A DNA stretch of 64,000 nt from Amphiscolops sp. MND2022 (taxonomy: Eukaryota): positions 69,566,001 through 69,630,000 of the forward strand of contig OZ076409.1 of the NCBI GenBank assembly GCA_964187785.1. Reading direction: 5' to 3'. Below the pieces are notes generated by a model, which worked only from the letters and a program-made list of their open reading frames with translations, ran no database searches and was not told the origin of the DNA. The position numbers were made by a program, and so were the translations under genes. This document shows positions 1 through 30,857 of this stretch, one piece after another (the first letter of the stretch is position 1; the number at the start of each line of letters is the position of its first letter).

Positions 1-640
1 AAGAGGACATGGAGGTAATTTAAGATTCCCAAAATTTTATTTTAACTGGTAACTCTAAAACTAACTTGAGATAAACTGTGACTAAAAGTGAAAAGATATG
101 TCTACTCTATACAAGTCTCAATTGAAAATGAAAATAGGGAAATAGTTTAGCCAAAATGATTTTTACGCATTTCCGGTAAGACGCTTCAGCCACGTCAAAT
201 TAGTAACATTCGCCACCTGAAAACTAAATTAAGACACGTTTTAAAACAAAGAAAGCATAAGCCAATCTAAATGAAAACATATCCAAAATCATCTCCAAAA
301 GGAACATCAATCAGATCTAAAATAGAAAATACATTGAGATGGCACGCCGAAGAAACTAAGCTTTCCTGAGAAAGGCAGTTTTATTACTCTTTTAACAGCA
401 GTTAGTGTAGTTTAGGACGTCAATTTTGCGTTGTGCAAACAAAGCGGCGGAGGAAATAAGAATACATGTCGCTAGTAAGACGCAGACAAGTTTGGAGGTA
501 TACCAATTGACGTCACTGCCTCGCCTATACGTACTAGAAAATCATACCGATTATCCGCCTATATTAATAACCTTGCTAGAAATCATTCCAATTTACCGCC
601 GATATGACGTCACAAACTTGGCAGCTAGTGAGAATATACT

Positions 641-812
641 CTAAAATCTTGGTCAATACTACGTCAACGCTACGCCAGCTAGCTAGTACCTGTTCTAAAA
701 TCTTGGTCAATACTACGTCAACGCTACGCCAGCTAGCTAGTACATGTTCTAAAATCTTGGTCAATACTACGTCAACACCACGTCAGTTAGACAGAATTTT
801 ATCTAAAATCTT
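641..812 (+). repeat. 54-bp tandem repeat in the LTR (3 units plus a partial)
   Basis: CTAAAATCTTG recurs at 641, 695, 749 and 803. Confidence 0.95.
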
Positions 813-1802
813 GAAATAACATGTCACGAACTAACCAGGATAACCGTTTTAGCTCATCCGAAACGTTAAAAAGTATAAAGTTTAATAACTTCAACAAAGA
901 AGTGCCAATTAAAATATACTTAGCAAATAAGATGAAGACAAAAGATTTTGAGTTGTGATTTACTGTCGTTGTCGGAACGTCGACTAAAATGTTGTTCACC
1001 TAAAACTACAATAAAAAACGATTTTTAAGTGTGTTCCCTGGTATTCTTTAGACATAAGAGTCACAGTTTATATTCATTACTGGAGCGCATTGAGATTACT
1101 TTGTACAAGAAATGTATTTTTTTAATGGTTGCATCTTTATATCTAACTTGTTAAATTTACGTAAATTGGTTGTGTTTGTAATCACAATTCTAGCGTTAAT
1201 TTTCCGTTAAAACTGTAGTCACTAAACCTGTTTTGGGATTATTATTATACAATCATTATATGTGTTGGTGTGTTCACTAAAAGATATAATTTTGACGCAA
1301 TTGTCACGTCAGACTTGTACGGTGTCAGACTATTGATCTATACATATATGCTTGTGAATGTTAAACTTTGTGTTTAATTTGATATTCATCATCTCCAGTC
1401 TGTCGGAATATTCTCTTAGCTTCGCTCAAATATTCATAACTTGAAATTAGTCATCAAATTTGATCAAGTCGAAGTCCCAGATCAAGCATTAGTTGTTCAC
1501 GTCAGCGTCATCTCAGCGTCAATTTCCCGCGAACCAAAGCAGTAAAACAGGGAATCGTTTCCGGTTCGACAGACTGAAGTAATATCTACTTCCTGCTTGG
1601 GAGGAATTAAAAGGACGCCGGAATGAAATAATATGCTCGTGATAGATGACTAATAGAGGAAAACTATCGCTGTGTCTCGAAATTTGACGAAATGTCGACG
1701 TAAATTTGGGATCTTGATAATTTTTTCACTGAAAAAACAGGAAATGACTAATTGTTCGGAGGAATTTAGGAATATGTACGTGATCAATGGATGCTAGAAG
1801 GG

Positions 1803-1840
1803 TATATATATGATGTTTATTTTTGTTCAAGGGACTCAGT
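1803..1840 (+). promoter_or_regulatory. Putative LTR core promoter: TATA box plus initiator
   Basis: TATATATA at 1803-1810 and TCAGT at 1836-1840, about 30 bp apart. Both are conserved in the copies near 25785 and 28344. Confidence 0.6.
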
Positions 1841-1963
1841 CCTTTTCAAGCTATAAAACTCAGTTGTTCTCAACCTTTGCTTTAATCTTGTTCCAATCTC
1901 AACTTTATTGAAAACCAGAAAGATAAAATTGAATTCTTTGGAAATCAAACTTTCTTCATCAAC

Positions 1964-2998
1964 ATGTCAACAACAAGAAGCCAAAAGAAGAAAAACACTC
2001 AGCAAAATACTGAAGACATCGTAAGTGAAGGTTTCATTTCGCCAATAAATATAGAGAACTCGCGTTCTTCAATCAGGATATAGACGTAGCAGGTCCGTCA
2101 AGCCCGAAGTCCCCTAGGATAGACAAAAGCTCTTTGGAGAGTTTGAGAGCTTCCTTGAAGGAAGAAATTGCTTCCGATATCAAAACTTTCCTTCTAGAAT
2201 CTCAAAGAGAACAGTTGAAGCTTCTGAGATCTGAAACAGGAGGAAATGTAAGAAATAACACGGTAGATGAGTCGGAAAATGAAACAAGGAGTATCCACAT
2301 CCCAACGAAAACAGTACGAATCAACTCTACTCAAAATAACGACCCTGGCACAAATGTAAGTCGTAACATGGTGACAGGAGTCCTAACCGACTCCACCAAC
2401 CGCCCAAAAAGAACGAAATTAAGGTCCCAGAGTCAACCAGCGGCCAAAGAACGTCCACCGGTGGCCAGAACACTATTTAGAGCAGAAAAGATTGACTCCA
2501 CCACACTACCCATGCCAAAGGCCCTAACGGCATCACTCCCAACTTTCGATCGGAAATCTGACAAATTTGAATTCTTTGAAGACTTGTTCCGTAACAACAT
2601 AAAAATGTACCCGCACCTCACGGAATCCCAAAAAATCAACGACTGTCACTCGTTGCTAAGAGGAGACGCCCTCAAGCTGTTCGGCAACATTGAAGACTCC
2701 AAGAAGGACTCGTTAGACGAAATAATGACAATTTTTTAACGTCGATTTGGAGATTATCTGTCAATGGCAAAAGCCAGATGCGAGTGGGACTCACTCAAAG
2801 TTGATCCGGCAACACAAAAACTACATGAATTCCTGGACGTACTTCAAAAAACTGCGAAAGAAGCCTTCAGTTCGGAAGCTCAACAATTTATTGACAAAGC
2901 AATCTACGCGAAAATGCCAGACCATGTAAAGAAAATCCTCAACAGGGCGTATCTTGAGGACAAACCATACAATGATATAGTACTCCATTTGGAGCGGG
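1964..2998 (+). pseudogene. gag: Gypsy gag, 5' part (1-nt deletion near 2070, stop at 2737, interrupted by the BEL insertion)
   Basis: MSTTRSQK... starts at ATG 1964 and continues through LPTFD..FEFFEDLF and the LRGDA capsid-like motifs. The frame resumes after the TSD (LHLER|EMRLNGL). Confidence 0.8.
2369..2381 (+). promoter_or_regulatory. Primer-binding site, tRNA-Leu-like
   Basis: TGGTGACAGGAGT immediately after the LTR CA. Resembles the complement of a tRNA-Leu 3' end (TGGTGTCAGGAGT); isoacceptor unverified. Confidence 0.7.
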
Positions 2999-3949: not shown

Positions 3950-4074
3950 TTTGGTCCGCCGACCCGGACAACTCGTTGGTGGACGACCCGGACTAGAAGA
4001 AGACGACTCGTTGGTGGACAACTGGGAAGATTGCCCAAGAAGAACAAGTGTCTGGATCTTGGAGTTGCTGATTT

Positions 4075-4266: not shown

Positions 4267-4305
4267 TGTGACTTTGGGAACTGAGTTCAACCAAGAGGAG
4301 AAGAG

Positions 4306-9963: not shown

Positions 9964-10329
9964 TTCACCAAAAGATCCCCCTACTACAGATGACTCAACA
10001 ATAGAGTGCGTCGGCACTCCAACAGAGGACTGGTTGAGACAACAAGCACTCGCCTCAATAAGAAGAGCAGTTCCACAACCAGAAAGGGAGGAAACCTACA
10101 CTCAAGACAAGACTACAGAGATGACCATACACGTAATGCAAACCCCATCGTACAACTTCCTTGCCCCACTAAAGAACAAACAGCTACAACCCAAATAGAC
10201 CAAAATGGAAATGTCACCGACGACCACCCACCGCTACAACGAACGAAGAAGATACCCACGGCCCCACAAGGTCATCTATCTTACACGACGATTTCCCCAC
10301 CTCACTTAATTCGATCAAAGAGTATATAA

Positions 10330-13300
10330 CCGAAAAAGATGGGGATACCTACATACCCCTGCACTCGACTATAGTCCTCAAGAACAGAAGACGAATGCTG
10401 TCTTTGCCAGCGAGTTCGGCGAAATAACCATGGACGGCCTAGTTGACTCAGGAGCGTTCATCAACGCCATGTCATGGTCAGACTACAACGCCATTAAAAT
10501 GAACAGTGACAATTGCATTATAAAAGAATACCCACAACCTCCTTTCAAGATCGAATGCGCAAACGCCCAACTAGAACAACCTATTGCCACTGCTGACATT
10601 CAATTCAATATCGGAACATACACGTTCACCGACACCTTTGTCATCCTATCAAAGACGTCATTCCCCATAATTGGACTGAATTTCATGAGAAACCACCAAG
10701 CAGTGATAGATACAGCTAACGGGAGCATCACCTTCCCACATGTCGAAATGACATTAGCCATGACAGACGAAAAGAAAAACTGTAACCCCATACCGCTCCA
10801 AATCATTACCGAAGGGAATCAGACGCTGCCACCACAAGAAACAACAACAGTAAATGCAATAGTCATAACCACCAATGCAACCGTCATCATAGGCGCAGTA
10901 CAACCGCTACCACAGTTTGATGAAACAGCCACCATCATCGTTGCACCAGCACTGGCCACAGCTCATAACAAACGAATAAACCTCCGAATAGCCAACTTGA
11001 CAGATTTCCTTCACACCATAAAAAACCATACCAAATTAGCAGAACTGCAAATCCTTAAACCAGAGGACACAGAACAGATACGACCCATAGACGTTGCAAC
11101 ACTAACCACCCTACAAGACCCAGATGACACGCACATGAAATCCACAAATAACGAACAAAACGACGAAAACCTCTGGTTCCCAACACCCGAAAACCCGGGA
11201 AATGAAGATGAACACACGCCAATACAAAGGCAAATATTATAAGAAATCAGAGAACTTATAAAGAAAGAACAACTCGATCCCACCAATGATCCAGAATCAA
11301 GGAAAGAGTTCCTCGACATGTTCAAATGGGAAAGATCGCAGATTCAGGGAAATGACAGAAAACAGCTTGAGCAAACGGTAGTTGAAAACAACGACATTTT
11401 TGCGCGTCACAGACTTGACGTTGGCATCAACAACAGCTTCAAAGTGAAACTAACGCCAAAAGATGAACGCCCCATATATACACAAAGTTTACCAGTACCA
11501 ATCAACCTGAAAGAAGACCTAACAGACGAACTAGCGCTCATGCATAGACATGTCATAATCACGACATTACTGTTTTCAAGTTATGTCAGCCCGACTTTCG
11601 CACAACGTAAATCAAATGGTAAACTGCGTCTACTTGTCGACCTACGAAAAATCAACGCACTGATATCTGACAACTTCATCAACAAGAATCATCCAGTCAG
11701 CACCCTGTCAGACGCAGCCCAACACCTAGCTGGAAAAAACTGTTCTGTAAATTAGATTGCTCCCAGGCATATCATTGCCTACAAATGGCGGATCAAAGAT
11801 CCATTGAAATGCTAGCATTCAATTTTGCAAGCAGAACCTTTGCATACAAACGACTGGAACAAGGACTGAGCAGAGCTTTGTCAGCGTTTTCAAGCTTCAT
11901 GAGGGAGTACTTGGTTAAAGTTATTAAAGCTGACCAGTATGCGCAATATGTGGACAATATTGGAATAGCTGCCAACTCCGTGACGCAACTGATACGAAAC
12001 ATTCGAGCTGTTTTTGAATGCATCAGACAAGCAGGACTTAAACTGTCCATTGACAAATGCCATTTTGGAATGACCGAGGTCGAATTCCTAGGAAGAACGA
12101 TCACCCCACAAGGAATTGCCCCCCAAGGCCACAAAATCCAGAAATTCTTAGCAAACGTACGATTCCCGAAATCAAAGAAGCAAGTACAAAGATACATAGG
12201 CTTTGTCAACTACTACCGCTACTATATCCCGCGGTTGTCAAAAATGTTACTCGGTTTCTACGAACTACTGAAAGCAGACAAACAGATCAAAGTCACAGAG
12301 GAATTGCTAGATAGCTACAAAGCGATCAACGCAGCGCTAGCGGAGGCATGTGGATTGGCTCTCAAACAACCAATCACAGGACGACAATACGTCCTAATGA
12401 CGGATGCTAGTTTTCGCGCTTCAGGATATGCTTTAATGACCGAAGAAGAAAACGACAAAAAACTGAATTCCAAAAAGAAATTTTTTGCGCCTGTAGCATT
12501 TGGATCAAAAGTATTTTCACCAGCGCAACTGAAGATGTCAGTTTATTGCAAAGAATTTCTGGCAATCTACCACGCGTTTTTAGAATACAGCCACATATTG
12601 TGGGAAACAACCCTACCAACTCTTTTAATGACTGACAACAGATCAGGAACGAGGTTTTTCAAACAAAAGCGACTCCCCCCACACTATGGAATGCATGCGA
12701 CTACGTACTACAGTTCAATTTTCACATCATGCACGTAGCAGGGACGCAAAACACCGCTGCTGATTTCTTTTCGAGAATTGACCTTAACCCTGAAGAAAAA
12801 GTTGAACTAAAAATCCGAAACGATATTACGATCCAACCAATACAAGTGAACCTACAATCGACAGACGTCGCAGATGAGGAGCAACTCTTTTTTCTCCTTT
12901 GAAACAGAAGAGGAGATCCTCCTACAGAAAGAACAAGCAAAACAAAATGCACGAGATGAGGAGACGACAAAAATAAAGCTGTCCATCAAAGAAACAACCC
13001 CAATTCCAATAAACAAGGCATCATACACCTTTGGGGCAATCAAAGAAGATGCACGCATTAGAGTTGAACAAGACTCAGATTTGATTTTCAAAGCAATCAA
13101 GAGAAAATTGATCTGCGAAGAATATGACAAACACCTACTACAAACAGATCCGAAAACCAAACGCCTCTTTGACACGAAAATAGACTAATAGTCAAAGACG
13201 GAATCCTAATGCGAAAATACTATGGGGAATGAGGACAAGTCACGCATCATCAAATATTAATCCCCGAACACCTAATCACAGAACTACTGAAAGCCATTCA

Positions 13301-13680
13301 CGGACAAATGGGAAAACATCCAGGAATCACCAAAATGATCCAAGAATGCAGATCGAAATATTACTACCCTGGCTTGGCAAAGAGGATCAAACAATGGGTA
13401 ATGCAATGCGAAGACTGCATCAAACACAAAAGAATCAACAACAGCCATATCCGACCGAAAATGATCAACAATACAGAACACGTATTGGGACCAGAAGACT
13501 TACTCGAAATCGACATACTGCCAAACCTACTGCAGGATACCAGAACATTGTCATAATGATCGACGTGTTCTCGCGTTACCTATTCGCATACCCAACGCAG
13601 AATGCCACGGCGAAGACAATTGGACGATGCATTGTCGATGTCATGACAAGACACGCATATTTGCCAACATTAATCTTATC
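10330..13680 (+). pseudogene. pol: Gypsy pol: protease, RT, RNase H, integrase N-terminal part; several frameshifts and stops
   Basis: LVDSGA; LRLLVDLRKIN; YVDNI (YVDD mutated); MTDASF..GYAL; H-x5-H...CEDC zinc motif; IDVFSRYLFAYP. Confidence 0.92.
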
Positions 13681-16600
13681 TCCATCGCCAAGCGTAAGTT
13701 AGAGGAGCGCTACAACAACATGCGATCAATCGTGAAGGCGCACTTGGCGGCAATTCATGCCCTACCAGTCATCAAGAAGGAGTCAAGTGTCGAGCTGCGC
13801 AAGTTACTGGAGTCGACCAATGAACATGTGCAAGCACTAGAAGCCTTAGGGCTTCCTGTTGATCAATGGGATGCAATACTTGTGTACTGGCTGCTTGAGA
13901 AACTTGATAATGAGTCGAGAAAGCAATTTGAATTGGCTCATCCTGGCATAGATGTGTTAACATTCAAGGAGTTAAAATATTCATGGATAGACGAAGCCGT
14001 GCATTGGAATCAAGCGGCGACCAGAATGAAGCTTCCGTCCCCAAGACGACGCCTAAGAAGGTGCTTCAAGAAGCATATTCCTCAACTGTTGAGCACTCAG
14101 CAAGCTGTCAGATGAAAGAATGCAATGGGTTTCACTCAATTTCTCAGTGTGATCGCTATGTTGAGCAGTTGGGCACATGTGAGAGAAAGGCAGTGGTGAG
14201 GAAGCTCAAACTGTGCATGAACTGTCTGGGGCGGCATTTCGTGGCTGACTGTCCATCCAAGTTCAGCTGCCGCACTTGCAACGGGAGGCATCACACATCG
14301 CTGCACTTTATCGTGCAGTCGAGCAGCAAAGTGGTGTGACAAGTGGTGCAACGTTCAGTGGTCCATCTGTGCTTCTCTCAGCAGCAATGGTTGGCATAGA
14401 CGACAAAGCTGGAAAGACATTGAAGTTCCGAGCCCTGCTGGACTCTGGGTCTCAAACATCCTTCATCACAGCGGATGCAGCATCGAAACTCAACATCGCC
14501 TGTTCAACAGTTGATGTGAAGATCTCAGGGATTGGTGGACGGCAACAAGCAGCAAAGGAGTCAGTCAATCTCGTGATTGGTCCTCAAAAACTGCCGGTAA
14601 CAGCACTAGTGCTGAACTCAATTGCAGGTAATATACCCTCTCAATCCATTAATTTGAAACAAATGAAATCAATGAAAAGTGTAGCATTAGCTGACGAAAA
14701 CTTCCATCAACCTGGCCCCGTTCAATTATTGGTGGGCGCGGATGTATACGAGGATCTCTTTCTGGACGAAAGGAGGAAGGCTCATGGGCTTCACTATCGC
14801 AAGTCTATCTTCGGCTGAGTGGTCACTGGAGTGCTGTCCCAAGTGCGTACCTACCAATGTCGATCATTCCAAGTTGCAGTGTAACTGGATCTTGCTCGCT
14901 TCTGGGAAAATGAAGAGATTCCTCGAGTGAAGCCAATGTCCAAAGAAAATTGTCAATGTGTGGAGCATTACGACACAACAACCTATGTTGCTGATGATGG
15001 CCGCATCACTGTTCGTCTGCCTTTCAAGTCTGAAGCACGTCCCTCAAACAATTTTCACACAGCAAAGCAGAGATTGTTCCATGGAGAGAAAACTCAAGGA
15101 TCACGGTGATGTGAAGCAGCAGTACCGTGACTTCATCAAGGAGTTTGTAGACATGGGTCACTTGGAAGAAGCTCCTCAGACTTCAGGCTTGCGTTACTAC
15201 TTATCCCATCACTGTGTTTTCAAGGATAGCACAACGACCAAGCTCCGTGTCGTGTTCGATGCCAGGAGCAAATCCCCGAATGGCAACTCGCTAAACGATT
15301 GCCTATTGCTTGGACCCCGTTTGCAGGACGATGTGTTTGATATTTTTATCCGCTTTCGCCTACACCAATATGCCTTGTCGGCAGATGTATCAAAGATTTA
15401 TCGACAAGTGGGTGTAGACAAATCAGACCGTGACTTCCATCGAATTCGGTGGCGTGACCTTGTGACAGATGAGATCCGAGAACTGCGTATGACCCGTGTG
15501 ACGTACGGTGTTGCCAGCTCCTCCTACCTTTCAACCTGAGCACTTCAAGAGAGTGGCAAAAATCATGGACCCAATCCGAACACAGTGAATGTGATTCTCA
15601 ACGATTTCTGGGTTGATGATTTACTGAGTGGGGCTGATACACTGATAGAAGCATGCGTGCTTCAAGACAATCTGATTGAAACCCTCAACAAGAACTGTCT
15701 CCAACTACGCAAGTGGAGCAGCAACGAACCCCAACTCGTCACTCGCCTTTCGAAAGACCTTCAGGAAGCTGGCAAGGCTTACGAAATCAACGATAAAACC
15801 CATCAAATCAAAACACTGGGACTGACGTGGCATCCTCTAGAGGATCACTTTGTGTACGCAAGTAGTAGTGAGTATATTTCAATCATTACAAAACGAACAC
15901 TACTCAGTGATGTTTCAAAGCATTTCGATCCAATTGGCCTCATAGCCCCAGTTCTCGTAGTAGCCAAGGTCATCGTTCAGTCCTGCTGGAAGCTGGATCT
16001 TGAGTGGAATGATGCAGTCCCAGATGATGTGTCACGGGCATACATAAACTGGAAAGATGACATGAGCTCACTATCACAACTCAAGATACCCCGGAAGGTG
16101 CTGCCAACCCACTTGTATGACGCAGCATCCTTACAAGTCTTCTGTGATGCCTCGGAAAAAGCATACGGTGCCTTTGTTTATCTGGTGTCAGTCAAAGATG
16201 ACATCGTCTCTTCAACCCTCATCTCCTCCAAATGCAAGGTGGCTCCAATCAAACCCTCAACTCTCCCTCGACTCTCGAACTCTTGGCAGTTCACACGGGT
16301 GCCAAACTTGCAACAGCAGTCAAGGGGGCACTATCAAAATCAAAGCACGCATTGAACATCTCTGTGCTGTACTCAGACTCAACAATCGCCCTCTCATGGA
16401 TCAAGGCAGACCCTGCTCGATGGCATACGTTTGTGTCAAACCGCGTGTCCCAAATTCAGTCAATGCTCCCATTAACTGAATTCATTCACGTACCCTCAGA
16501 GGAAAACCCAGCAGATCTGTGCTCACGCGGACTGCTAGCAACGCAATTGGTGGCTCAGCAGACGTTCTGGTTTCAAGGGCCATCGTGGTTGGGATCATCA

Positions 16601-17539
16601 TTTCCTGACCAACCTCAGACTCTCCTCACAAAGGAGGAGGTCCGCCAAGAAATCAAAACATTGACAGTGTTAACTTCGCCCAGTAATTCGTTAGTAGACT
16701 TGGAGAATTTCAACTCTTGGAGTGTTTTGTGTGTGAAGAGAATAAAAGAAGCCAGCAAATATTTTGAATTTTTCAACAGCCACACACCCAACTCAACTGG
16801 AGCCAGCTACACACCCAACTCCAATACCCAATCCAACTCAATCCCTTTATACGTGATGATGGTACAGTGGTAAATTCAATAACCCCTTATCAGAAGTCTG
16901 GAGTTCGAATCCCCGAATAACAAAAATTTTATTTTGTCCCCTTTGAACTGAAACTCTGGTAATTTCCAATTTGTATTACGTGTGCTAACCATATATTTAA
17001 TAAAGCTGACACTTCATGGCCGGCGGGATGTTGGCGCACGACATTAGAATAGTATCGTATAATTATCAATCCACTTAGCACAGTGGATGAGTGTTTGCTT
17101 CCGAGCCAGTCTGACCGGGTTCGAATCTGCAACAGTGCTATCTTTTGTTGCTATTTTTGTTTATTCATTCTTAACCTCTGATATATCAATCATATCAGTT
17201 GACATTTGTAATGTTGCTCATTTATGTTTGCGTACATGAACAAATGTAAACAGTCTGAATAGACCTTTTTTTGCCCTTTGGCTGTAAATTCATCGTTTGA
17301 TAGTCAACAACTTAAAAACCCAGTCATGAAATTTTCCTCCTTTGCATCATTATTATACTTTCATATCGTTACTGAACTCTTCAATAAACGTTATCAGTTT
17401 AGTCTTCTTGTTTGAGAAAAGCAAAGGCTTGAACTCTATCTTAAGTTCCCTCCATCTCAATAGTTTGAATTCTATCTTTGAGTTCCTTCAATTATTCTAG
17501 TTCGAACCCTGTCTTGAGTTCCTCCGTCTTAGCTTGAGA
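13681..17539 (+). mobile_element. Truncated BEL/Pao fragment of a second family: gag end, PR, RT, RH, no integrase, PPT and partial 3' LTR from 17029
   Basis: RALLDSGSQTSFI; HHCVFKDSTTTKLRVVFDA; TYGVASS; FWVDDLL; FCDASEKAYGA; ENPADLCSRG; GGCCGGCGGGA|TGTTGGCGC at 17018-17037. Confidence 0.9.
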
Positions 17540-18668
17540 TTACCTATTCGCATACCCAACGCAGAATGCCACGGCGAAGCCAATTGGACGATGCATTGTC
17601 GACGTCATGACAAGACATGCATACCTACCAATATTAATACTATCAGACAAAGGCTTACAATTCCGATCAGAAGTTGTCGCAGAGATAACGCACATACTCG
17701 AAATCCAAATCAGCCACGCGTCAACAAAACATGCACAAACGATTGGAATTTTGGAAAGGACACACGCTTCAATCAAAACTGCACTAAAATATCGACGGGG
17801 GAAAGACGTTCAATGTGGCACAAATATGTCCAAATTGCAGTCATGAACTACAACACAACGTACCATGAAACCCTAGGTTGTGAACCATCCACAGTATTTC
17901 ATGGACGCATACCCTACAACGTTCTAGACCTGAAGTTAGGCATCAAGCCAAAATGGAAAACTACACCTAACTCAGATCTAGGGGAGCAACTACAAAAACA
18001 AATAGACGAAGTGAGAGCGACAGCAAAGGACAATATCATGTTGTCTTACCTCAAATACAAAAAATTTTACGACCGCAAAGCGTCAGCAGCTCCGCTCAAA
18101 GTAAACGTCTACTGCTACATTCTCAAACCGAAAGCTGACAATCAATCAACAAAGTTTGCGTTCCAAGATTGCATCTGGACAGGACCGTACATAGTGATCA
18201 AAGTGCTCTCAAACAATAACTACACAATAAGGAAAACTGGCACGAGACATAAGCAAACACTACACAGAATCCGCATACGACCTTACGTACCAGAACAACG
18301 TGTGCCTGACGTCACGGTACGAGCAAACGAATATTTTCCTGATCCATATTTCTAGGTGTCCCACAATGAATGGTACGCGGTATCATGGGAAATGGATTTT
18401 AGAAAACAATTGACGAACACGAGTCAAAGACATGAATGACGCAACGCCATCGTCACCGGATTTTTCGAATCTTACTACAGACGTGGGGGATAACCCATAC
18501 ATACGACGCCCCTCACCCATTGAAAGTCCACCTATTCCCCCAAGATCACAGCCTACAACTGTCGGATATAACCCGAGGAAACCGGCAAAGTATAACTTGA
18601 GGCCTAACCCTAAATCTAATGCTAATCCTGACTTCAGACGACTCGACGCTCTGACTACGACTCACTAG
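17540..18668 (+). pseudogene. pol: Gypsy integrase core and C-terminus (frameshifted)
   Basis: ILSDKG.QFRS; HAQTIGILERTH; YNTTYHETLG; WTGPYIV (GPY/F motif); YNLRPNP tail. Confidence 0.9.
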
Positions 18669-18908
18669 AAATGAAAAGATGATATCAGGAGTCCAGACCG
18701 AACCGATCTGACAAATTCAATCCAAGGCCATCCATAACGCTACTAGAAGATCTAACTCTACAACTAACTGCCGCTACAACTAACTGCCAGAAGACAGTAA
18801 CAGATAACAATAAAACAATAACTAACTAACTAAACATATCAGTTACAAACAACTTGTCTTTCAACGGATCAATCAGACTCAAGAACAGCCTTCTTCTTCC
18901 TCTCACCT

Positions 18909-21900
18909 TTATCGGTGCCTCTCTTCGTGCGCCGCACAGAACTCCTGCCTTTTACTAGAGCACGAACCAGATTGTTCTCCGGCATCATCAGCAACTTTGG
19001 ATCCACTCACGACAGGCAGGGTACTACCTCTCTTTACACCAAGGTAAGAAGCCAATGAAGTCTGCAACTCCCTACGACTCTTTTTCGTCGAACTGACTAC
19101 CCTTACGGTACTCCGCACAGGAGAAGCAACAGCTGAACCAGCCCCAGACACAACAGAACCGCCGGAACGCATGTCTCGCGGACGTTCTGGAACACTGCGA
19201 AGACGAGTCTCAGCATTTTTCTTCTTTTGAGCCAGATGAGCAGCGAATAGGTCACTGTAACGACCAACGAAAGCAGAACGATCTTTCTGCGCAATTTCCG
19301 CCCAAAGATCGAAATCAGTGGATTCCATAAAGTCCTGAGCTTTCATAACTGACTGCCGGACCGCATCCATCGTAGCAACGGTAAAAAAGGAGCCTTGCTT
19401 GAAAGTAGGCATACGGACATAGCTCTGAACACATTTGATGGCCGAATTCAATACCACAGCAGGAACACTACAGTCTGAAAGATCAATATCAATCGAGGGT
19501 AACCGCATTGGATTCTTTAGCACGACCAAGCTGCATAATTGCAAAACACGGACAAGATTGTGGCGAGACAGGAATCCATAATCCGACAAAAGATACGTAA
19601 CAACGTCGTTTATTGCCGAAGCAGACCGCTCTGACTCTTCATGACGGAAGCGTGCCTCCACAACAAATGCAGCAAACTCGTCAATACTGGCATTGACCGC
19701 ATCTCGCGACAAACAACCAACTTTCTCCAATACGCGCAGCAGTTTACCAAAGAGTCCAAATATGTAACGGTCATCTCCTTCATGAAGCATCTCAGGGCAA
19801 AAGCAATAAATACTCTGGTAGAAGTTGCCAGTCACTAGATGCAACGATAAAATTGCGTCCACGAGGTGATTCATAAAGTCAAGGCAACGACTGCGGACGT
19901 CTCGCACCTCTCCAGTATTGGCTCTTCTCAAAGCATCTCCGAAAGGATGATTGGCCAAAAAATCCTTGACATATATCTTGCCCAGAACAGCCACCTTGGA
20001 CGAGTCCATGTAAGCATCCCAATCGGACAGCACAGGCATATCGGCAACTCGTCGTGTCTGTGTCAGCAGGCAGTATACAAATTCACTTAGTTCGCCGTAA
20101 CTGTGAAAGCCATAATCGGTACGGCCTGAGAGTTGCTTCTTGAAGACGCGGTGATCTGGAAACACACAAACCATAAAAACCCAAATCACCCAAAACTACG
20201 CGATTAGTTTACCACAACGACAACTAACAGAGATCCAGAATGTGCAGCAGCAATCCCAGCAACAAATCAGTGGTATTACTTGAGCACACAAACCAGTCAA
20301 TGCTCTGCATCTGAAACAAAACAAAAAAACAGTGACAATAAAAAGGACACGAAGAGAAACCCCTTGCCTTTTCTCTATCTATCAACCCATTTTAACAACA
20401 AAAAAAACAAGGGAAAAAAAGAGGAACAAATCATACCCTATACAAAGAACTAAACGGGACGGACGTACCCTCTCTGCAGCGCTTTTGATATGGTGAGAGC
20501 CAGTATGACGCACGTACTCCCGCACGAAAGTCCAGACAGAAAGCAACTCGGACACGACATCTCGAAAGCCAACAAACTTGACAGATCCAACGACAATAGC
20601 ACGTCGCAAGGCTGGCACTTCTTCCAACCAGGGCTCCTGCAAAGCCCCCTTCAACCGCAACAAGAGGAAATCGACCATGGACGTCGTCTCAAAGGCACTG
20701 AACACCTCCTGATGACTTTGACGAAAACATCGCAAAAATACATCAGCAGAAAATTCGCGACAGAAAGCAAACTGTCGACCATCGTCCCGGTTGTCAATAA
20801 GAACACGTAGCAGAGTGGGACTACCGCCCCGAATACTCAGAGGCAAATGAGAACCGGGAATGACGCTCACTAATAGAGACAAAGCAGCAAATTCGACGTC
20901 AGGAACACGTTGTCCAGCGGGCTTAGCATGTACACACACCTCCAACGGAGTGTGTTTCTCCCACGTTCTCACTACACAGATCTGCTTATCATCCACCTCC
21001 TCGAAAGTCACACTGTACTCACCAAAGGTGACAAAGCGAGCACTCAGAGCCCGGAGAACTCGTGGGAACAAGGCATGGCAAACCAGCGACTACAACAAAA
21101 CAACAAAGCCTGCAGTCAAATCAACAACCCAAAATCACAGGACAGGGCAAACAATAAATATGGTTACAAAGTCGAACAACAGAAATCCACGTACCAATGA
21201 CTCACAGCGACTCCACATCATATTATACAGGGGGTCCTCAGACTAGAGAGTGGCACGGAAGCAACCCCAGAGACGTCGCAGAAACACGTTGCTCCCGCCC
21301 CAGCGGAGAAGTTCCAGGAGACAGTTCACCGTAGTCATCAGAGGAACATTTGAACCCACCCGGGTACAAGAAGGCAAAAGGTCCTCAGGGAAGGGGAAAC
21401 CTTCAGCCCGACCACGACAAGGCCGCGAAGAGTATTCCGCTTTCTGCTCGGCACTCAACGTCAGAGGATCACGCATCCGCCCATAGACTGGAAGTCCGTT
21501 GTGCACTCTGTAAGTCACATCGGCCTCCCAATGTTTGGGAGTCCCAAAGAAGTGGCGATCGAACTCTCCAGCCCCCCTCGCCGCATGAAAACATCGCGAT
21601 GACAGATGGTGCAATAGAAGGCCCATGGGAAGCCAGTGCTGGACCCACTTACAAACAAACTGTACACTGGGTCGTCTCTGACCATACTACGTCGTAATCG
21701 GGTACGGGCACTATACTGCTTTGGCTTGTCACGAGAGCCAGTCAACCCCTCCAGACTTTTCTCCATTCAAGTCATAAGCTCTTGAAACCCTAAAACAACA
21801 CGGCCAAATCTCGAACAGCATATGCATACCTTCCCAATACCAATAAAAGAAAATATTACGTACTGGACAACAGAGGCTCCACTGTCCTGTCCTCAACCTC

Positions 21901-22837
21901 AGTAGCAACGATAACGCCCAGAACAGCAGTTTGCTGAGGTGTGAAGGGCGCCACTGACTCTACACTCGAATCGTCATCGGTACCTACGAAACCAACACGT
22001 GATGAAGAAATGATAACACAAGTCAGCAATATCAAAACACCATCAAAACAGTTTATTACTATCAGATCGAGGCTGTTGATGACGCGTTTGCGACGCAGCA
22101 GGACTACGACGATAACGCTTCGAACGTTGTTTCCCTGAATCTGCAACTGGTGCAACTAGAACAATTTAATGATACAACCACACATCAATAAAAGTCCATC
22201 ACGAAAAACTAGAATCACAAAGCGCCAAACCTCGCTTCTGACTGGACTTCTCGTCTGGACGTCAAAGATTGAACTGATAACAGGCAACCAAGTTGACGCA
22301 CCAGCTTCAAGGTAACGTCCTCCGCAAAAGTGACGGCGGCCGTACGGGAAGAAGCAGCTACTCCACCAGCAGTCGTAAAGTTGGCCGCAGCGTCTGCGAG
22401 AAGTGGTCCAGAGGGATCAGCAACCAAACTTTGCAAAGGCACATCAAGCCCATCGTCTTCGGAAGAAGAAGGCCCTTTTCCTTGGGAATCAGGCGGTACA
22501 GGCACAGAAACAGAAGAGATCGGAACGACTACAGGAGAACTTCCATCAGGAGGAGGGACAGCAGCAACAGCAGCAGAAATTTGCCCTAGTACAAACACTA
22601 TTCCAATATCGACGCGTCAAGAAAACATAAGCTGTAGAAATGCAAATATGGGAAAGGCCTGCTCATATAATGTGTCATCTACAAAAGCTTAATGGGGAAC
22701 CGAAAAATGTACTCACTAGCTGTAGCACGACGAGCGTCATCAGCGTCACTGTGACGCATGCCCCCCTCAGAGAAGACAAATTGAGTCTCGTTTCCGCTCA
22801 CTAAACCCGAGTCAATAAAGCCTCGGGAGTGAGACAT
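18909..22837 (-). pseudogene. Antisense 8-exon cargo gene (~1060 codons): low-complexity N-terminus, C2H2/BED-like zinc finger, hAT-transposase-like body; damaged in this copy
   Basis: Predicted exons: 22837-22717, 22585-22302, 22155-22060, 21983-21864, 21789-21195, 21089-20469, 20310-20213, 20155-18909. All introns are GT..AG, 57-158 nt, with T-rich acceptors. Contains FYCTICHRDV...RHFFGTPKHW. Confidence 0.72.
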
Positions 22838-22888
22838 TGCGAGCAGCTCGGAATCTGAAAACAAACAGGGTGAAAACAACAACCAAAT

Positions 22889-23145
22889 TGACGTCATCAT
22901 AACGGTGACAAAACAGAAGTTGGCTGATAACCAACGAAATTGACGTCGGCATAACGTCGGCAAAAAGGTTATCAGTGTTGAAAATTTAATCCTATAATCT
23001 ACAATGACGTCTCCATAACGGTGACAAACTTAGAAGCTAGTTAAAAGTTAGCGAAATTGACGTCAGCATAACGTTGACAATCTTGTTTAAGTGAATTATT
23101 TCAATTTACAGCCAATAAAAACGCGATGTCGACATAGCGGTAACA
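22889..23145. promoter_or_regulatory. Array of five 22-bp motifs (TGACGTCnnCATAACGnTGACA) between the divergent cargo genes
   Basis: Copies start at 22889, 22941, 23005, 23058 and 23124; the last is degenerate. Regulatory role is inferred. Confidence 0.7.
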
Positions 23146-23300: not shown

Positions 23301-24002
23301 ATGAATAATCTACTAGACGTATACGAGCTGATCGACATCTCATCGTCAAGCGAGGAGGAAGGCGAGATCACAAGAGCTTCTGCCCCGCTACCTAGGGACC
23401 GCAAAGAAAATCCCAGAATAGTTGTCGAGATACTAAACTCGTCGGCGGAAGCTACTGCAGATGAGGAAGAAATTCTCGACCTTTCTCTAAACTCCCTGGA
23501 AACTGAATGCAAAAGAATGAAACTTAGCAAATCTTACACGAGCTTCGAAACAGTAGAATCGGGACAATACCCGCATTCGAAAAGTTCCGAGGAATTAGCT
23601 GACTCCCCAGAAAGCCCGGACGAGAGCTTGTCCTCTGATATATTCGTTGTAGAAGCTTCAGCAAACAGTGAAGAGTCGGTAGCAAGCAGTAAGGTAGCGG
23701 AATACCTCGAAAAGGTACGCCAGGAAGACTCTTCTACTTATTTCAACACGCCACTGGGAACACCCAGGAAAATCACCTTCACACCCGCAAGCCCCCTGAA
23801 TGACTTGGAGAAGGGAATCTATACAGCCGCTACTACTCCGACCATCGCCTCACAACTCAGAGCCCCAGGTAGCGTCATTCTTCTTACGAGAGCGGCCCTG
23901 TCACAACCCGCTCCCGGTCTGGCCTGTGGTTGCAGACGATTAAAAATCGGAAGAGGACATGGAGGTAGTTTAAGATTCCCAAAATCCTATTTTAACTGGT
24001 AA
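23301..24002 (+). CDS. Acidic, Ser-rich accessory protein (233 aa from ATG 23301) with SIM-like motifs; its 3' end lies inside the terminal repeat
   Basis: Open frame containing ELIDISSSSEEE, IVVEILNSS, EEILDLS and DIFVVE, with C-terminal KIGRGHGG. The same C-terminal coding sequence is at window positions 1-53. Confidence 0.65.
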   Translation: MNNLLDVYELIDISSSSEEEGEITRASAPLPRDRKENPRIVVEILNSSAEATADEEEILDLSLNSLETECKRMKLSKSYTSFETVESGQYPHSKSSEELADSPESPDESLSSDIFVVEASANSEESVASSKVAEYLEKVRQEDSSTYFNTPLGTPRKITFTPASPLNDLEKGIYTAATTPTIASQLRAPGSVILLTRAALSQPAPGLACGCRRLKIGRGHGGSLRFPKSYFNW

Positions 24003-26352
24003 CTCTAAAACTAACTTGAGATAAACTGTGACTAAAAGTGAAAAGATACGTCTACTCTATACAAGTCTCAATTGAAAATGAAAATAGGGAAATAGTTTAG
24101 CCAAAATGACTTTTACGCATTTCCGGTAAGACGCTTCAGCCACGTCAAATTAGTAACATTCGCCACCTGAAAACTAAATTAGGACACGTTTTAAAACAAA
24201 GAAAGCATAAGCCAATCTAAACGAAAACATATCCAAAATCATCTCCAAAAGGAACATCAATCAGATCTAAAATAGAAAATACATTGAGATGGCACGCCGA
24301 AGAAACTAAGCTTTTCTGAGAAAGGCAGTTTAATTACTCTTTGAACAGCAATTAGTGTAGTTTAGGACGTCAATATTGCGTTGTGCAAACAAAGCGGCGG
24401 AGGAAATAAGAATACATGTCGCTAGTAAGACGCAGACAAGTTTGGAGGTATACCAATTGACGCCACTGCCTCGCCTATACGTGCTAGAAAATCATTCCGA
24501 TTATCCGTCTATATTAATAACTTTTCTAGAACTCATTCCAATTTACCGCCGATATGACGTCACAAACTTGGCAGCTAGAGAGAATATACTCTAAAATCTT
24601 GGTCAATACTACGTCAACGCTACGCCAGCTAGCTAGTACCTGTTCTAAAATCTTGGTCAATGCTACGTCAACGCTACGCCAGCTAGCTAGTACTTGTTCT
24701 GAAATCTTGGTCAATACTACGTCAACGCTACGCTAGCTAGATAGTATCTGTTCTAAAATCTTGGTCAATACTACGTCAACACTACGTCAGTTAGACAGAA
24801 TATGTTCTAAAATCTTGAAGTAACATGTCACGAACTAACCAGGATAACCGTTTTAGCTCATCCAAAACGTTGGAAGGTATAAGGTTTAATAACTTTAACA
24901 AAGAAGTGCCAATTAAGTTATACTTAGCAAATAAGATGAAGACAAAAGATTTTGAGTTGTGATATACTGTCGTTGTCGTAACGTCGACTAAAAAGTTGTT
25001 CACCTAAAACTACAATAAGAAGCGATTTATAAGTGCGTTCCCCGGTATTCTTTGGACATAAGAGTCACAGTTTATATTCATGACTGGAGCGCATTGACAT
25101 TATTTTGTACAAGAAATGTATTTTTTAATGGTTGCATCTTTATATCTAACTTGTGTTTGTAGTCACATTTCTTGCGTTAATTTTCCGTTAAAACTGTCAT
25201 CAGTAAACCTGTTTTGGGATTATTATTATACAATCACTAATTGTGTTGGTGTGTTCACTAAAAGATATAATTTTGACGTAATTGTCACGTCAGACTTGTA
25301 GGATGTCAAACTATTGATCTATACATATATGCTTGTGATAGTTAAACTTTGTATTTAATTTGATATTCATCATCTCCAATCTGTCCGAATATTCTCTTAG
25401 CATCGCTCAAATAATCATAACTTGGAAATTAGTCATCAAATTTGATCAAGTCGAATTCCCAGATCAAGCATTAGTTGTTCACGTCAGCGTCATCTCAGCG
25501 TCAATTTCCCGAAAACCCAAGCAGTAAAACAGGGAATCATTTCCGGTTTGACAGACTGAAGTAATATCTACTTGCTGTTTGGGAGGAAACAAAAGGACGC
25601 CGGGATGAAATAAAATGCTCGTGATAGATGACCAATAGAGGAAAACTATCGCCGTGTCTCAAAATTTGACGAAATGTCGACGTATATTTGGGATCTTGAT
25701 GATTTTTTCACTGAAAAAACAGGAAATGACTAATTGTTCGGAGGAATTTAGGAATATGTACGTGATCAAATGATGCTAGAAGGGTATATATATGATGTGT
25801 AATTTTGTTTAAGGGACTCAGTCCTTTTCAAGCTAAAAAACTCAGTTGTTCTCAACCTTTGCTTTAATCTTATTCCAATCTCAACTTTATTGAAAACCAG
25901 AAAGATAAAATTGAATTCTTTGGAAATCAAACTTTCTTCATCAACATGTCAACAACAAGAAGCCAAAAAGAGGAAAAACACTCAGCGAGATACTGAAGAC
26001 ATCGTAAGTGAAGGTTTCATTTCACCAATAAATATAGAGAACTCGCGTTCTTCAAATCAGGATATAGACGTAGCAGGTCCGTCAAGCCCGAAATCCCCTA
26101 CGATAGAAAATAGCTCTTTGGAGAGTTTGAGAGCTTCCTTGAAGGAAGAAAATGCTTCCGAGATCAAAACTCTCCTTCCAGAGTCTCAAAGAGAAACGTT
26201 GAAGCTTCTGAGATCTGAAACAGGAGAAAATGTAAGAAATAACACGGTAGATGAAACGGAAAAAGAAACAAGGAGTTTCCACACCCCAACGAAAATAGTA
26301 CGAATCAACTCTACTCAAAATAACGAGCCTGACACGAATGTAAGTCGTAACA
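23951..26352 (+). repeat. 3' LTR of the Gypsy element (true 5' boundary is at or before 23951 and undetermined)
   Basis: Matches 1-2368 and ends GTCGTAACA. Followed by unrelated flank GCATG rather than the PBS. Confidence 0.88.
24591..24816 (+). repeat. 54-bp tandem repeat (4 units plus a partial)
   Basis: Units at 24591, 24645, 24699, 24753 and 24807; one more than in the 5' copy. Confidence 0.95.
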
Positions 26353-29300
26353 GCATGGTCTGAAGTATCTGGAAGAGAGGAACTGATGATAGCTAGTCAT
26401 TGACACCAATTGGGTAGATTCAGCCCTTTTGAAAATTAGTTTTTGTTTTTTGCGAAGAAACTTGAAGAATCAGGAACAGGCATTGAAGCTCAAATTGACT
26501 GTAAGAATTGAGCGGTCGTTACATATTCCATAACAACTGTGACTAGTTTATTTTTCTTCTTTTCCTTCGTCTTTTTTTTCGATATCGCAGAGAGCGAAGC
26601 GGGTTTCCAGACCCAACGCACCCCGTATTGACGCTCCGAGACTTTTTGAAAGAAGTTTTCATCAGAAAAAACGCCAATTTGGGATTTTCATGTTCCCATT
26701 TACAAAAGAGGGTTGTACGAGACGGAAGGCTCCATTTCGAAGTTTTCCTGCACTTTAAGACTTACAGACTCTTTTTCTAAATTTTGCCTTGCACATTTTT
26801 AAACAACGCCACGCATTCCGAGTTCGAAGCGGTACGCCGATTTTAGACCTTTTGGTATTGTTTGATATCCAATGCGACAAGAACTTTAACGTTGCAGATG
26901 ATTTAATTTTTATTTTCCGCCCATATTCCATATGGGAAAGGAAAATATTAAAATCAAACGTTCTTCTTAACAGAATTTGTCAAGCACCAAATTTACATTT
27001 ACCTTTAAAGATGTTACCAAAAGAATTAAACACACAAAAATTTAGCTTCGTGCAATTCGTATTTGTGGAGATTTCTGGACTATTTAGTTGACCCCAAGGA
27101 CCACAGAATGACCCAAAAAACGAGAAAATTTGCAAAAATTTCCAATTTTTGACGTTCCAATGAATTTTTTTGATAGCTATCGTGAATTAGAAGGTTGAAA
27201 GCAAGGCTTAAATTCGTTGTCCAGTAGGCTTCTATAAAGAGATAAATGCTGTTTTCCGATTGAAAAGATCTCAAATTAATACCGGAAATGACAAAAAAAA
27301 CCAAAAATACCGATTTTTATCGTTTTTTATGCAATTTTTAAATCCAATTTTCGACAGACTTCGTAGATGAGGACGCGTAAAAGGGTCAAAAGGAAAAAAT
27401 GTGTTGTTAGTATGCATAAAGAAGAGATGAATGCAGTTTTTCAAATGAAAAATGTCTGGAACTGACATCTAAAAAGACAAAATTTTCGAAAATTTTTCGA
27501 TTTTCACCATTTCAACCCATTTTTTCATCAAACTATCAATAAACTTCATGGACTAGATTGTTAAAATTCCTGAATAATAAGAAAGATTCTTGTTTCGGTG
27601 AGCTTTCGTTAAGAGATAAGTTCAATTTTTAAAAGAAATATGCATCGAATTGGCACTGAAACTGTCGAAAAAGTTGTTTTTTCCTCTTTTTGTTGCAATA
27701 TCTGTACAATTTCCGAGAACGAGCTAGGCATGACGTTTTTGAGGAAAAAGTTGAAGCGTTTTGCTTCAAAAACATTTCAGAATGACCCAAATTGAGTCGA
27801 AAAGCTTCAACATCTTCGTTTTAAGGCAACTTTTCTGGACCTTCTGAATCATTTTGGAGTCAGAATGTTGGCAAACGTAGAAACAAGATTGAACTTATGA
27901 TGCAATAGGCTTTTTGAGCAATATTTGCAGACTTCGGTTGGAAGAATGGCTCAAACTTGACCGCAAAAGTAAAAAATGTCGAATTTTTTGCCGATTTTCG
28001 ATATTTTCAGTGAACTTTTATTTGATATTGAAAGGTTTTAGTAAAATGAATGCTTCGAAAAACTCCAGATGATAAAACTAGGTCCACAGCACGTTTTTTG
28101 AAGAGAAAATTGCATGTTTAATGGAGAAAAGTTACTTCAGAATCACCCAAATATTGCAAAAATAGGAAGTTTGTACTTTTTTTTACATTTCTAGGCAGCT
28201 TTTGAATGTTTTTTGCACTATTTCTTGGCATAAACTGGTTTGAAAAACACAACAATGACTAATATTGGTATCCAGTAAGCAATTTTGAAGATATCACTTT
28301 AGGAATTTAGGAATATGTACGTGATCAAATGATGCTAGAAGGGTATATATATGATGTGTAATATTGTTCAAGGGACTCAGTCCTTTTCAAGCTATAAAAC
28401 TCAGTTGTTCTCAACCTTTGCTTTAATCTTGTTCCAATCTCAACTTTATTGAAAACCAGAAAGATAAAATTGAATTCTTTGGAAATCAAACTTTCTTCAT
28501 CAACATGTCAACAACAAGAAGCCAAAAGAGGAAAAACACTCAGCGAGATACTGAAGACATCGTAAGTGAAGGTTTCATTTCACCAATAAATATAGAGAAC
28601 TCGCGTTCTTCAAATCAGGATATAGACGTAGCAGGTCCGTCAAGCCCGAAATCCCCTAGGATAGAAAATAGCTCTTTGGAGAGTTTGAGAGCTTCCTTGA
28701 AGGAAGAAAATGCTTCCGAGATCAAAATTCTCCTTCCAGAGTCTCAAAGAGAAATGTTGAAGCTTCTGAGATCTGAAACAGGAGAAAATGTAAGAAATAA
28801 CACGGTAGATGAAACCGAAAAAGAAACAAGGAGTTTCCACACCCCAACGAAAATAGTACGAATCAACTCTACTCAAAATAACGACCCTGACACGAATGTA
28901 AGTCGTAACAGCATGGTCTGAAGTATCTGGAAGAGAGGAACTGATGATAGCTAGTCATCGACACCAATTGGGTAGATTCAGCCCTTTTGAAATTTAGTTT
29001 TTGTTTTTTGCGAAGAAACTTGAAGAATCAGGAACAGGCATTGAAGCTCAAATTGACTGTAAGAATTGAGCGGTCGTTACATATTCCACAACAACTGTGA
29101 CTAGTTTATTCTTCTTCTTTTCCTTCGTCTTTTTTTTCAATATCGCAGAAAGCGAAGCGGGTTTCCAGACCCAACGCACCCCGTATTGACGCTCCGAGAC
29201 TTTTTGAAAGAAGTTTTCATCAGAAAAAAATGCCAATTTGGGATTTTCATGTTCCCATTTACGAAAGAGGGTTGTACGAGACGGAAGGCTCCATTTCGAA

Positions 29301-30857
29301 GTTTTCCTGCACTTTAAAACTTACAGACTTTTTTCTAAATTTTGCCTTGCACATTTTTAACAACGCCACGCATTCCGAGTTCGAAGCGGTACGCCAATTT
29401 TAGACCTTTTGGTATTGTTTGATATCCAATGCGACAAGAACTTTAACGTTGCAGATGATTTAATTTTTATTTTCCGCCCATATTCCATATGGGAAAGGAA
29501 AATATTAAAATCAAACGTTCTTCTTAACAGAATTTGTCAAGCACCAAATTTACATTTACCTTTAAAGATGTTACCAATAGAATTAAACACACAAAAATTT
29601 AGCTTCGTGCAATTCGTATTTGTGGAGATTTCTGGACTGTTTAGTTGACCCCAAGGACCACAGAATGACCCAAAAAATGAGAAAATTTGCAAAAATTTCC
29701 AATTTTTGACGTTCCAATGAATTTTTTTGATAGCTATCGTGAATTAGAAGGTTGAAAGCAAGGCTTAAATTCGTTGTCCAGTAGGCTGCTATAAAGAGAT
29801 AAATGATGTTTTCCGATTGAAAAGATCTCAAATTAATACCGGAAATGACAAAAAAAACCAAAAATACCGATTTTTATCGTTTTTTATGCAATTTTTTAAA
29901 TCCAATTTTCGACAGACTTCGTAGATGAGGACGCGTAAAAGGGTCAAAAGGAAAAAATGTGTTGTCAGTATGCATAAAGAAGAGATGAATGCAGTTTTTC
30001 AAATGAAAAATGTCTGGAACTGACATCTAAAAAGACAAAATTTTCAAAAATTTTTCGATTTTCACCATTTCAACCCATTTTTTCATCAAACTATCAATAA
30101 ACTTCATGGACTAGATTGTTAAAATTCCTGAATAATAAGAAAGATCCTTGTTTCGGTGAGCTTTCGTTAAGAGATAAGTTCAATTTTTAAAAGAAATATG
30201 CATCGAATTGGCACTGAAACTGTCCAAAAAGTTGTTTTTTTCCTCTTTTTGTTGCAATATCTGTACAATTTCCGAGAACGAGCTAGGCATGACGTTTTTG
30301 AGGAAAAAGTTGAAGCGTTTTGCTTCAAAAACACTTCAGAATGACCCAAATTGAGTCGAAAAGCTTCAACATCTTCGTTTTAAGGCAACTTTTTTGGACC
30401 TTCTGAATCATTTTGAAGTCAGAATGTTGGCAAACGTACAAACAAGATTGAACTTATGATGCAATAGGCTTTTTGAGCAATACTTGCAGACTTCGGTTGG
30501 AAGAATGGCTCAAACTTGACCGCAAAAGTAAAAAATGTCGAATTTTTTGCCGATTTTCGATATTTTCAGTAAACTTTTATTTGATATTGAAAGGTTTTAG
30601 TAAAATGAATGCTTCGAAAAACTCCAGATGATAAAACTAGGTCCACAGCACGTTTTTTGAAGAGAAAATTGCATGTTTAATGGAGAAAAGTTACTTCAGA
30701 ATCACCCAAATATTGCAAAAATGGGATGTTTGTACTTTTTTTTACATTTCTAGGCAGCTTTTGAATGTTTTTTGCACTATTTCTTGGCAGAAACTGGTTT
30801 GAAAAACACAACAATGACTAATATTGGTATCCAGTAGGCAATTTGGAAGATATCACT
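25742..30857 (+). repeat. Tandem duplication of ~2.56 kb (25742-28298 / 28301-30857): LTR 3' end plus flank
   Basis: Colinear near-identical copies, each containing the LTR end/GCATGG junction. Confidence 0.95.
28505..28921 (+). CDS. LTR-encoded gag N-terminal peptide (138 aa; intact in the duplicated LTR end, stop supplied by the flank)
   Basis: MSTTRSQKRKNTQ...TNVSRN then SMV*. Expression unknown. Confidence 0.45.
   Translation: MSTTRSQKRKNTQRDTEDIVSEGFISPINIENSRSSNQDIDVAGPSSPKSPRIENSSLESLRASLKEENASEIKILLPESQREMLKLLRSETGENVRNNTVDETEKETRSFHTPTKIVRINSTQNNDPDTNVSRNSMV

Follow-up and report, generated by a model that had tools for sequence, protein, structure and literature searches.

A predicted disarmed hAT-fold protein encoded antisense in Ty3/Gypsy retrotransposons of Amphiscolops sp.

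In this study, we report a gene predicted to be spliced, here called the cargo gene, that is carried by a family of Ty3/Gypsy LTR retrotransposons in the genome of Amphiscolops sp. MND2022. The gene was characterised in one copy within a 64,000-nt stretch of contig OZ076409.1 (positions 69,566,001 to 69,630,000, the window) and in relatives of that copy. It lies on the minus strand between the integrase and the 3' LTR, in an interval that also holds a repeat array and a sense reading frame (orfX); it is divided into exons, has been kept under purifying selection and was present in every element sampled by integrase. Its product is predicted to be a disarmed hAT-fold protein, and we somewhat favour the reading that it is a nuclear DNA-binding regulator which keeps the element expressed. 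The preliminary description had proposed a class II transposase gene inside a class I element, and the predicted fold together with the antisense position within the Gypsy element agrees with this.

The host element was recognised as Ty3/Gypsy by its TG..CA LTRs, the 5-bp TSD GCATG, a PBS-like sequence and the order PR-RT-RH-INT (Table 1). The two LTRs of the window copy are 93-96% identical. Its gag and PR-RT-RH-INT regions are on the plus strand and are broken, with two BEL/Pao insertions interrupting them. The gag frame opens within the LTR (window 2029-2368), and no clear polypurine tract was seen before the 3' LTR in relatives. The nested BEL/Pao-type element at 2999-9559 has 950-bp LTRs that are 99.8% identical and a TSD GCGGG. 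It contains a tandem array of 24-bp units (4033-4303) and an ORF of 1457 codons comprising gag and protease without RT, and is possibly a young non-autonomous element. The second, decayed BEL/Pao insertion lies inside the integrase (about 13680-17540) and has at its borders, in place of a short TSD, a direct repeat of host-element sequence (99-105 bp, 91-93% identity). Elsewhere in the window, a 2.56-kb tandem duplication (98%) at 25742-30857 takes in the terminal part of the 3' LTR together with the sequence flanking it, and two direct repeats (98%, about 780 bp each) at 43357-51239, enclosing ORFs at 46-49 kb, probably mark another LTR element.

Table 1. Features of the Gypsy element and its cargo gene in the window (positions counted from the first nucleotide of the window)
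Feature	Position	Strand	Remarks
5' LTR	1..2368, begins 52 bp upstream of the window	+	TG...CA ends, TSD GCATG, adjoining PBS-like TGGTGACAGG
gag, 5' part	2029..2739	+	Weak DUF1759 match; nested BEL/Pao element interrupts downstream
pol (protease, reverse transcriptase, RNase H)	10310..12738	+	Split over several frames
Integrase, 3' part, Integrase_p58_C (GPY/F-type) domain	17540..18668	+	End approximate
Cargo exon 8, latter half of the helical insertion, C-terminal hAT region, basic Ser-rich tail	18869..20155	-	Predicted
Cargo exon 7, 82 nt, phase 0 to 1	20229..20310	-	Conserved across families
Cargo exon 6, RNase H-like core with the beginning of the insertion domain	20469..21089	-	Predicted fold
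Conserved Trp	20628-20630	-	Cargo exon 6
Inferred CxxH His position	20751-20753	-	Phe in window copy
Inferred D2 position	20826-20828	-	Gly in window copy
Inferred D1 position	21000-21002	-	Glu in window copy
Cargo exon 5, C2H2 zinc finger and helical DNA-binding-like region	21195..21789	-	Frameshift near 21581 in window copy
Cargo exon 4, 120 nt, acidic, low complexity	21864..21983	-	Deduced from splice signals and related copies
Cargo exon 3, 96 nt, basic KQRSKRYRRS	22060..22155	-	Inferred
Cargo exon 2, Ser/Pro/Ala-rich	22231..22585	-	Ends inferred
Cargo exon 1	22717..22854	-	ATG at 22837
Array, 4-5 copies of a 20-bp motif with CRE-like TGACGTCA cores	22890..23144	+	Between divergent cargo and orfX starts
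orfX, acidic Ser-rich, 233 aa	23301..24002	+	Ends inside 3' LTR; no Pfam match
3' LTR	23899..26352	+	Followed by TSD GCATG

All peptides quoted in the preliminary description were found on the minus strand at their positions. The span that it gave to the gene, 18909..21766, had to be revised: the gene does not start at 21766 and comprises eight exons on the minus strand, from the ATG at 22837 to about 18869, including the 82-nt exon at 20229-20310 and an RNase H-like exon (20469-21089) which had been overlooked and which holds the first two catalytic positions. The splice model was based on conserved GT/AG dinucleotides and on a naturally intron-poor homologue. Exons 5-8 are well supported, and exons 1-4 are of low complexity with inferred ends. 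Across copies with protein identities as low as about 40%, splice dinucleotides kept their codon positions in 31/34, 33/34, 34/34 and 30/34 cases. In a divergent intron-poor clade with many intact frames (L146-L184, e.g. G000:C2:6779803), exons 5-8 form a single open frame of 870-930 codons, and its junctions agree with the predicted splices; this clade retains introns only in the 5' part, which implies that loss or gain affected all three core introns jointly. An additional 5'-UTR intron is suggested by an AG acceptor that closely precedes exon 1, and the basic peptide of exon 3 is a possible nuclear localisation signal. In the window copy, exon 2 lacks more than 100 bp near 22300 compared with close copies and contains frameshifts, and further frameshifts occur near 21581 and, in the tail of exon 8, near 18946; the copy is thus a degraded representative of a family in which many members are intact.

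The zinc finger had earlier been read as one stretch of the type C-x2-C...H-x6-H. Its residues, including the C-x2-C pair, are present, but WAFYCTICHRDVFM, which includes CTIC at 21602-21613, and GAGEFDRHFFGTPKHW, at 21531-21554, lie in different frames because of the frameshift near 21581, which is seen against 4/4 close copies. The H-x6-H spacing is likewise specific to the window copy, where 3 nt are inserted near 21547 relative to 4/4 close copies, and was ruled out as a family motif since the relatives carry C-x2-C-x16-H-x5-H. Both Cys of this finger were conserved in 18/18 aligned rows, the first His in 17/18 and the second in 18/18. No Pfam finger scored above threshold, with sub-threshold hints of RNA-binding U1/jaz-type fingers (E 0.035 to 1.5), and the finger falls outside the Hermes-aligned range of the structural model described below.

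Catalytic positions were mapped by the register of native hAT motifs together with predicted strands and helices, not by residue-level superposition, and were tallied over the rows covering each position among 212 database proteins scanned. The inferred D1 was Asp in 3/34 rows. At the inferred D2, Gly was found in 55/62 rows and Asp in 2/62; the inferred CxxH His position held His in 0/61 rows and Phe in 52, and the inferred Glu site was Glu in 10/123. As had been proposed, the peptide LKNPMRLPSID (19488-19520, exon 8) stands at the expected place of the hAT Glu motif, and in the AlphaFold2 model this degenerate site forms a loop or strand and no helix. The DDE residues and the CxxH motif are required for hAT cleavage and hairpinning (PMC4763223). 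The earlier remark that no catalytic motif is visible was borne out at the inferred D/D/E and CxxH positions, none of which is conserved. The residue following D1 was acidic in 27/35 rows, and this is the only feature that would still fit a residual metal site. A Trp at the start of the insertion domain was kept in 46/49 rows and is inferred to be equivalent to Hermes W319. No intact DDE and no TIRs accompany the gene: a shared terminal inverted repeat was absent from 4/4 flanking regions scanned, and no 8-bp hAT-type TSD was found around the gene, the only TSD seen being the 5-bp one of the LTR element.

The AlphaFold plus Foldseek comparison suggested in the preliminary description was performed with a natural intron-poor ORF of 769 aa, modelled by AlphaFold2 from a 51-row alignment (pLDDT 82, pTM 0.69). 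Window exons 6 and 8 aligned to this homologue with hhalign probabilities of 99.8 and 100. The model comprised a zinc finger, a helical region, a five-stranded RNase H-like core, a long helical insertion and C-terminal helices, a layout that corresponds to a predicted hAT fold with finger, DNA-binding helices, RNase H core, helical insertion and C-terminal dimerisation region; as in Hermes, the predicted RNase H core is split by an all-helical insertion. Foldseek ranks 1-11 were all Hermes transposase chains (E 2.6e-5 to 1.3e-3, probability 1.0), and the first other match had an E of 0.018. VIA-align, for which Foldseek's top chains served as the comparison set, superposed model residues 175-703 on Hermes 115-609 (Z 14.0, rmsd 5.4, 397 aligned residues); the runners-up were RIG-I (Z 6.7), ISCth4 (6.4) and RAG (5.3). 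The earlier proposal of a hAT-type protein was upheld in that the modelled homologue matched Hermes and nothing else comparably. In ESM Atlas, hAT, FAM200/ZBED5 and C17orf113 clusters scored 0.89-0.94 (0.91-0.94 for hAT/FAM200/ZBED5), below two unnamed clusters at 0.94, and 10/10 of the best family matches belonged to one clan, hAT/FAM200/ZBED5. hATs fall into three groups (PMC3942097), and the matches of the model lean towards the Buster/Tip side.

Sequence-based searches gave no such link. Pfam searches of the window ORFs and 51 family members returned nothing above threshold, including PF05699 (Dimer_Tnp_hAT); PDB profile searches yielded no hAT link and one chance match at E of about 1; and hhalign against 11 native Ac-type hAT pieces of this genome gave no match (probability 0.2). 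Exon 8 alone was modelled by AlphaFold2 with a pLDDT of 53.6 and no Foldseek match, and its best ESM Atlas score of 0.79 was uninformative. Taken together, a hAT ancestry with loss of catalysis is very likely, and the cargo protein is like a disarmed hAT protein, not a hAT transposase.

The abundance of the gene was determined in the 1.07-Gb assembly. A search with exon 8 gave 6116 first-look candidates, and all of the 131 that were scored had E<1e-97, most of them without a stop, so that the cargo gene is present far beyond chance. Gypsy pol was opposite in orientation in 27/29 cargo loci with long flanks (10/10, 7/7, 4/4, 6/7 and 0/1), and the two others are truncated and still beside orfX; as these 29 loci were drawn from the top-scoring matches, a distant non-LTR donor would have escaped. 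Conversely, when 20 elements were picked by integrase alone, stepwise down a list of 150 integrase matches, the cargo gene was found in 20/20. The paired LTRs of relatives were mostly 96-99.9% identical, indicating that the lineage amplified recently. At G000:C13:16513750-16552349, whole elements were seen repeated head to tail with a period of 14 kb, and one element (L069-L070) had its RNase H-integrase block triplicated.

A profile search recovered 1666 database representatives at E<=0.001, the best 150 of which were family members or fragments. For two database proteins, the closest match in this genome reached only 32% and 53%, a hint that the cargo family may exist in other genomes as well. 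A search for longer database proteins gave none at E<=0.1 among 7992 scored, and none of 388 pattern matches in metagenome contigs was confirmed. Searches of the genome for a donor with PF14291 and PF25431 gave no match, and neither did the controls; with PF05699, ordinary hATs with intact motifs were recovered, unrelated to the cargo by sequence, and no donor hAT was among them.

Selection was assessed in the 17 pairs with a synonymous difference under 0.70. dN/dS was 0.055-0.20 in 16/17 of these unsaturated pairs, and the exception (0.34) involves the decayed window copy; the cargo gene is under purifying selection. A recent nested hAT insertion was ruled out by the lack of TIRs, the presence of the gene in all sampled families and this selection.

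Trees of pol and cargo were compared for 27 elements, after exclusion of a copy that lacks pol and of a partial locus. Both trees set apart the intron-poor clade and two basal families, and six sister pairs recurred; this agreement at depth indicates that the cargo gene is old in the Gypsy lineage. Within clades, divergent cargo versions have been exchanged between near-identical backbones. The 20 integrase-picked elements and the query carried five cargo types, 44-67% identical, and the integrases of elements with different types were 95-98% identical, with an integrase synonymous difference down to 0.06 between types whose cargo divergence is saturated. In one swapped pair, the 8.7 kb of LTR-gag-pol were 97.9% identical and orfX with the LTR about 95%, compared with 65% for the cargo; the synonymous difference was 0.054 in RT, 0.024 in integrase and 0.022 in orfX, against 0.77 in the cargo. 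Breakpoints of exchange flank the cargo gene and its 5' region, and two elements with different cargo types had LTRs that were 95% identical. When four types were compared, the finger and DNA-binding-like region was most conserved (81-82%) and the RNase H core least (56%), the RNase H and insertion surfaces (56-63% between types) being the most variable.

The divergent interval between cargo and orfX contains a 20-bp motif with 5 matches against 0.13 expected, one of the five lying elsewhere. The array was found in the window and in 13/15 other intron-rich elements, and was absent from the two basal intron-rich families and from the 4 intron-poor elements scanned. The main over-represented 8-mer was the CRE-like TGACGTCA, which we take to be probably a host bZIP site; since the core of the array is a CRE palindrome, the array may serve a host bZIP factor. 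It is also a candidate site for the cargo protein. No repeat motif or array specific to a cargo type was found in 11 elements. CCAAT boxes occur within the array region, and CRE pairs occur in the LTRs too. The position of orfX was conserved in all intact elements checked, and in intron-rich families orfX begins with LIDISS or VIDISS, a SUMO-interaction-like motif.

In the explanation that we favour, a hAT gene, either from a mobile hAT element or from an already domesticated host gene, would have entered an ancestral Gypsy element at the DNA level and in reverse orientation. Its antisense introns would outlast retrotransposition, since the genomic RNA corresponds to the opposite strand and would go unspliced at them. 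Cutting activity and transposon ends would have been lost, and the finger and DNA-binding helices would have been kept to bind the element's own DNA, at the LTR or at an internal divergent promoter, where binding would promote transcription or resist silencing. The remainder of the protein may meanwhile diversify, shuffled by template-switch recombination. This explanation draws on the predicted fold, the changed catalytic positions, the purifying selection, the constant context within the element, the high conservation of the finger with the DNA-binding-like region and the exchange of versions; it is weakened by the blank sequence searches, the acidic residue after D1, the lack of a type-specific repeat motif and the 95% identical LTRs of two elements that differ in cargo type. 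An env-like role was ruled out by the absence of the sense orientation and by the nuclear-type fold.

Other readings accept the same origin and assign a different task. The hAT scaffold binds DNA ends and oligomerises, and the protein might accordingly act at integration, binding element ends or host chromatin to tether or chaperone the pre-integration complex; its presence in 20/20 sampled elements would suit such a role, yet 13 insertion flanks showed no obvious common target motif by eye, and a cargo swapped among types 44-67% identical beside integrases 95-98% identical is a poor fit with a tight integrase partner, so that we consider this rather unlikely. A counter-defence or RNA-handling factor that works through protein or RNA contacts, for example in nuclear export of the genomic RNA, with its diversity reflecting a host arms race, is unlikely too. 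It would explain why the RNase H and insertion surfaces vary most, it has the weak Pfam hints of U1/jaz-type fingers and a precedent in CERV, the spliced Gypsy accessory protein of Cer1 that acts in RNA export (PMC10309623), but the pairwise dN/dS is purifying, not positive, and it is the DNA-binding-like region that is most conserved.

The five deeply diverged types coexisting on backbones with near-identical integrase, and breakpoints that flank the gene with its 5' region, may also be read as a multi-allelic specificity cassette resembling a phage immunity region, in which each version controls elements of its own type and rare types spread. VANC21 and VANC6 are family-specific in action (PMC6719617), which gives such a cassette a parallel; however, the type-specific DNA motif array that would go with it was not found and the finger region is 82% identical between types, which makes it distinctly improbable. 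A wider form of the proposal, that the cassette is obligatory, its disarmed hAT versions governing or shielding elements of their own type and being swapped between backbones, with transposon-on-transposon domestication driving the amplification of the lineage, is put forward tentatively, as a somewhat unlikely possibility. Very improbable, finally, is a protein that has remained a nuclease by rebuilding its active site, or a hAT likeness that arose by chance in modelling. The acidic residue beside D1 and the lack of support for hAT homology from any sequence search speak for it; against it are the Gly at D2, the absence of the CxxH His from every covering row, the loss of the Glu helix, and the agreement of ESM Atlas, Foldseek and VIA on hAT with a wide gap to the next fold.

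Compared with known systems, the cargo protein resembles Hermes (PDB 4D1Q, 8EDG, 2BW3) and Buster/Tip-like derivatives (FAM200, ZBED5, C17orf113) in the order of its domains and in its fold, as predicted across some 400 residues, and has in common with them a putative N-terminal C2H2 finger and the Trp at the start of the insertion domain. It differs in having no DDE triad, CxxH His or TIRs, in its low identity (10-13%), in its location within an LTR retrotransposon and in its low-complexity N- and C-terminal extensions. DAYSLEEPER and ZBED/ZNF862 are host-domesticated hAT proteins that have taken on a new job, as the cargo protein appears to have done. Kat1 is a further example (PMC4763223). 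Host-domesticated hATs, however, each occupy a single host locus, whereas the owner of the cargo gene is a mobile element with hundreds of copies.

The position and orientation of the gene have a close parallel in plant Gypsy elements, in which antisense ORFs of unknown role and origin lie between pol and the 3' LTR, among them TRP28/Transposase_28 (PF04195) of Retand and those of maize Grande and rice RIRE2; like the cargo gene they occur in nearly all copies, and a DNA-binding regulatory role has been proposed for them (PMC11963269). Unlike TRP28, the cargo protein had no PF04195 match in Pfam, and it differs from the plant ORFs in its whole-length predicted hAT fold, its predicted splicing and its swappable types; introns are not mentioned in the main text of the Retand paper (PMC11963269). 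Capture of ORFs downstream of pol has been reviewed (PMC6431247). VANC of Arabidopsis VANDAL and the ASY2-like domain of ATLANTYS are, like the cargo, co-opted accessory proteins that are kept by transposons and diverge between families, but they derive from host chromatin or meiotic proteins (PMC6719617, PMC13547354). VANC also relies on family-specific tandem motifs (PMC6719617), of which none was found for the cargo types in the 11 elements. In the literature searched, which included few subscription journals or Repbase reports, a hAT-derived accessory gene in an LTR retrotransposon was not found.

Transposases are known to have been domesticated by hosts; here, one appears to have been domesticated by another class of mobile element, and it has been kept, with its introns, in hundreds of recently amplified copies. 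The cargo gene would provide a traceable origin, and a starting point for biochemical tests, for an antisense accessory ORF of Gypsy elements, a group of unexplained source and role (PMC11963269). Its versions, divergent to saturation and carried on near-identical backbones, may serve as natural variants for studying how an animal LTR retrotransposon regulates itself or escapes silencing.
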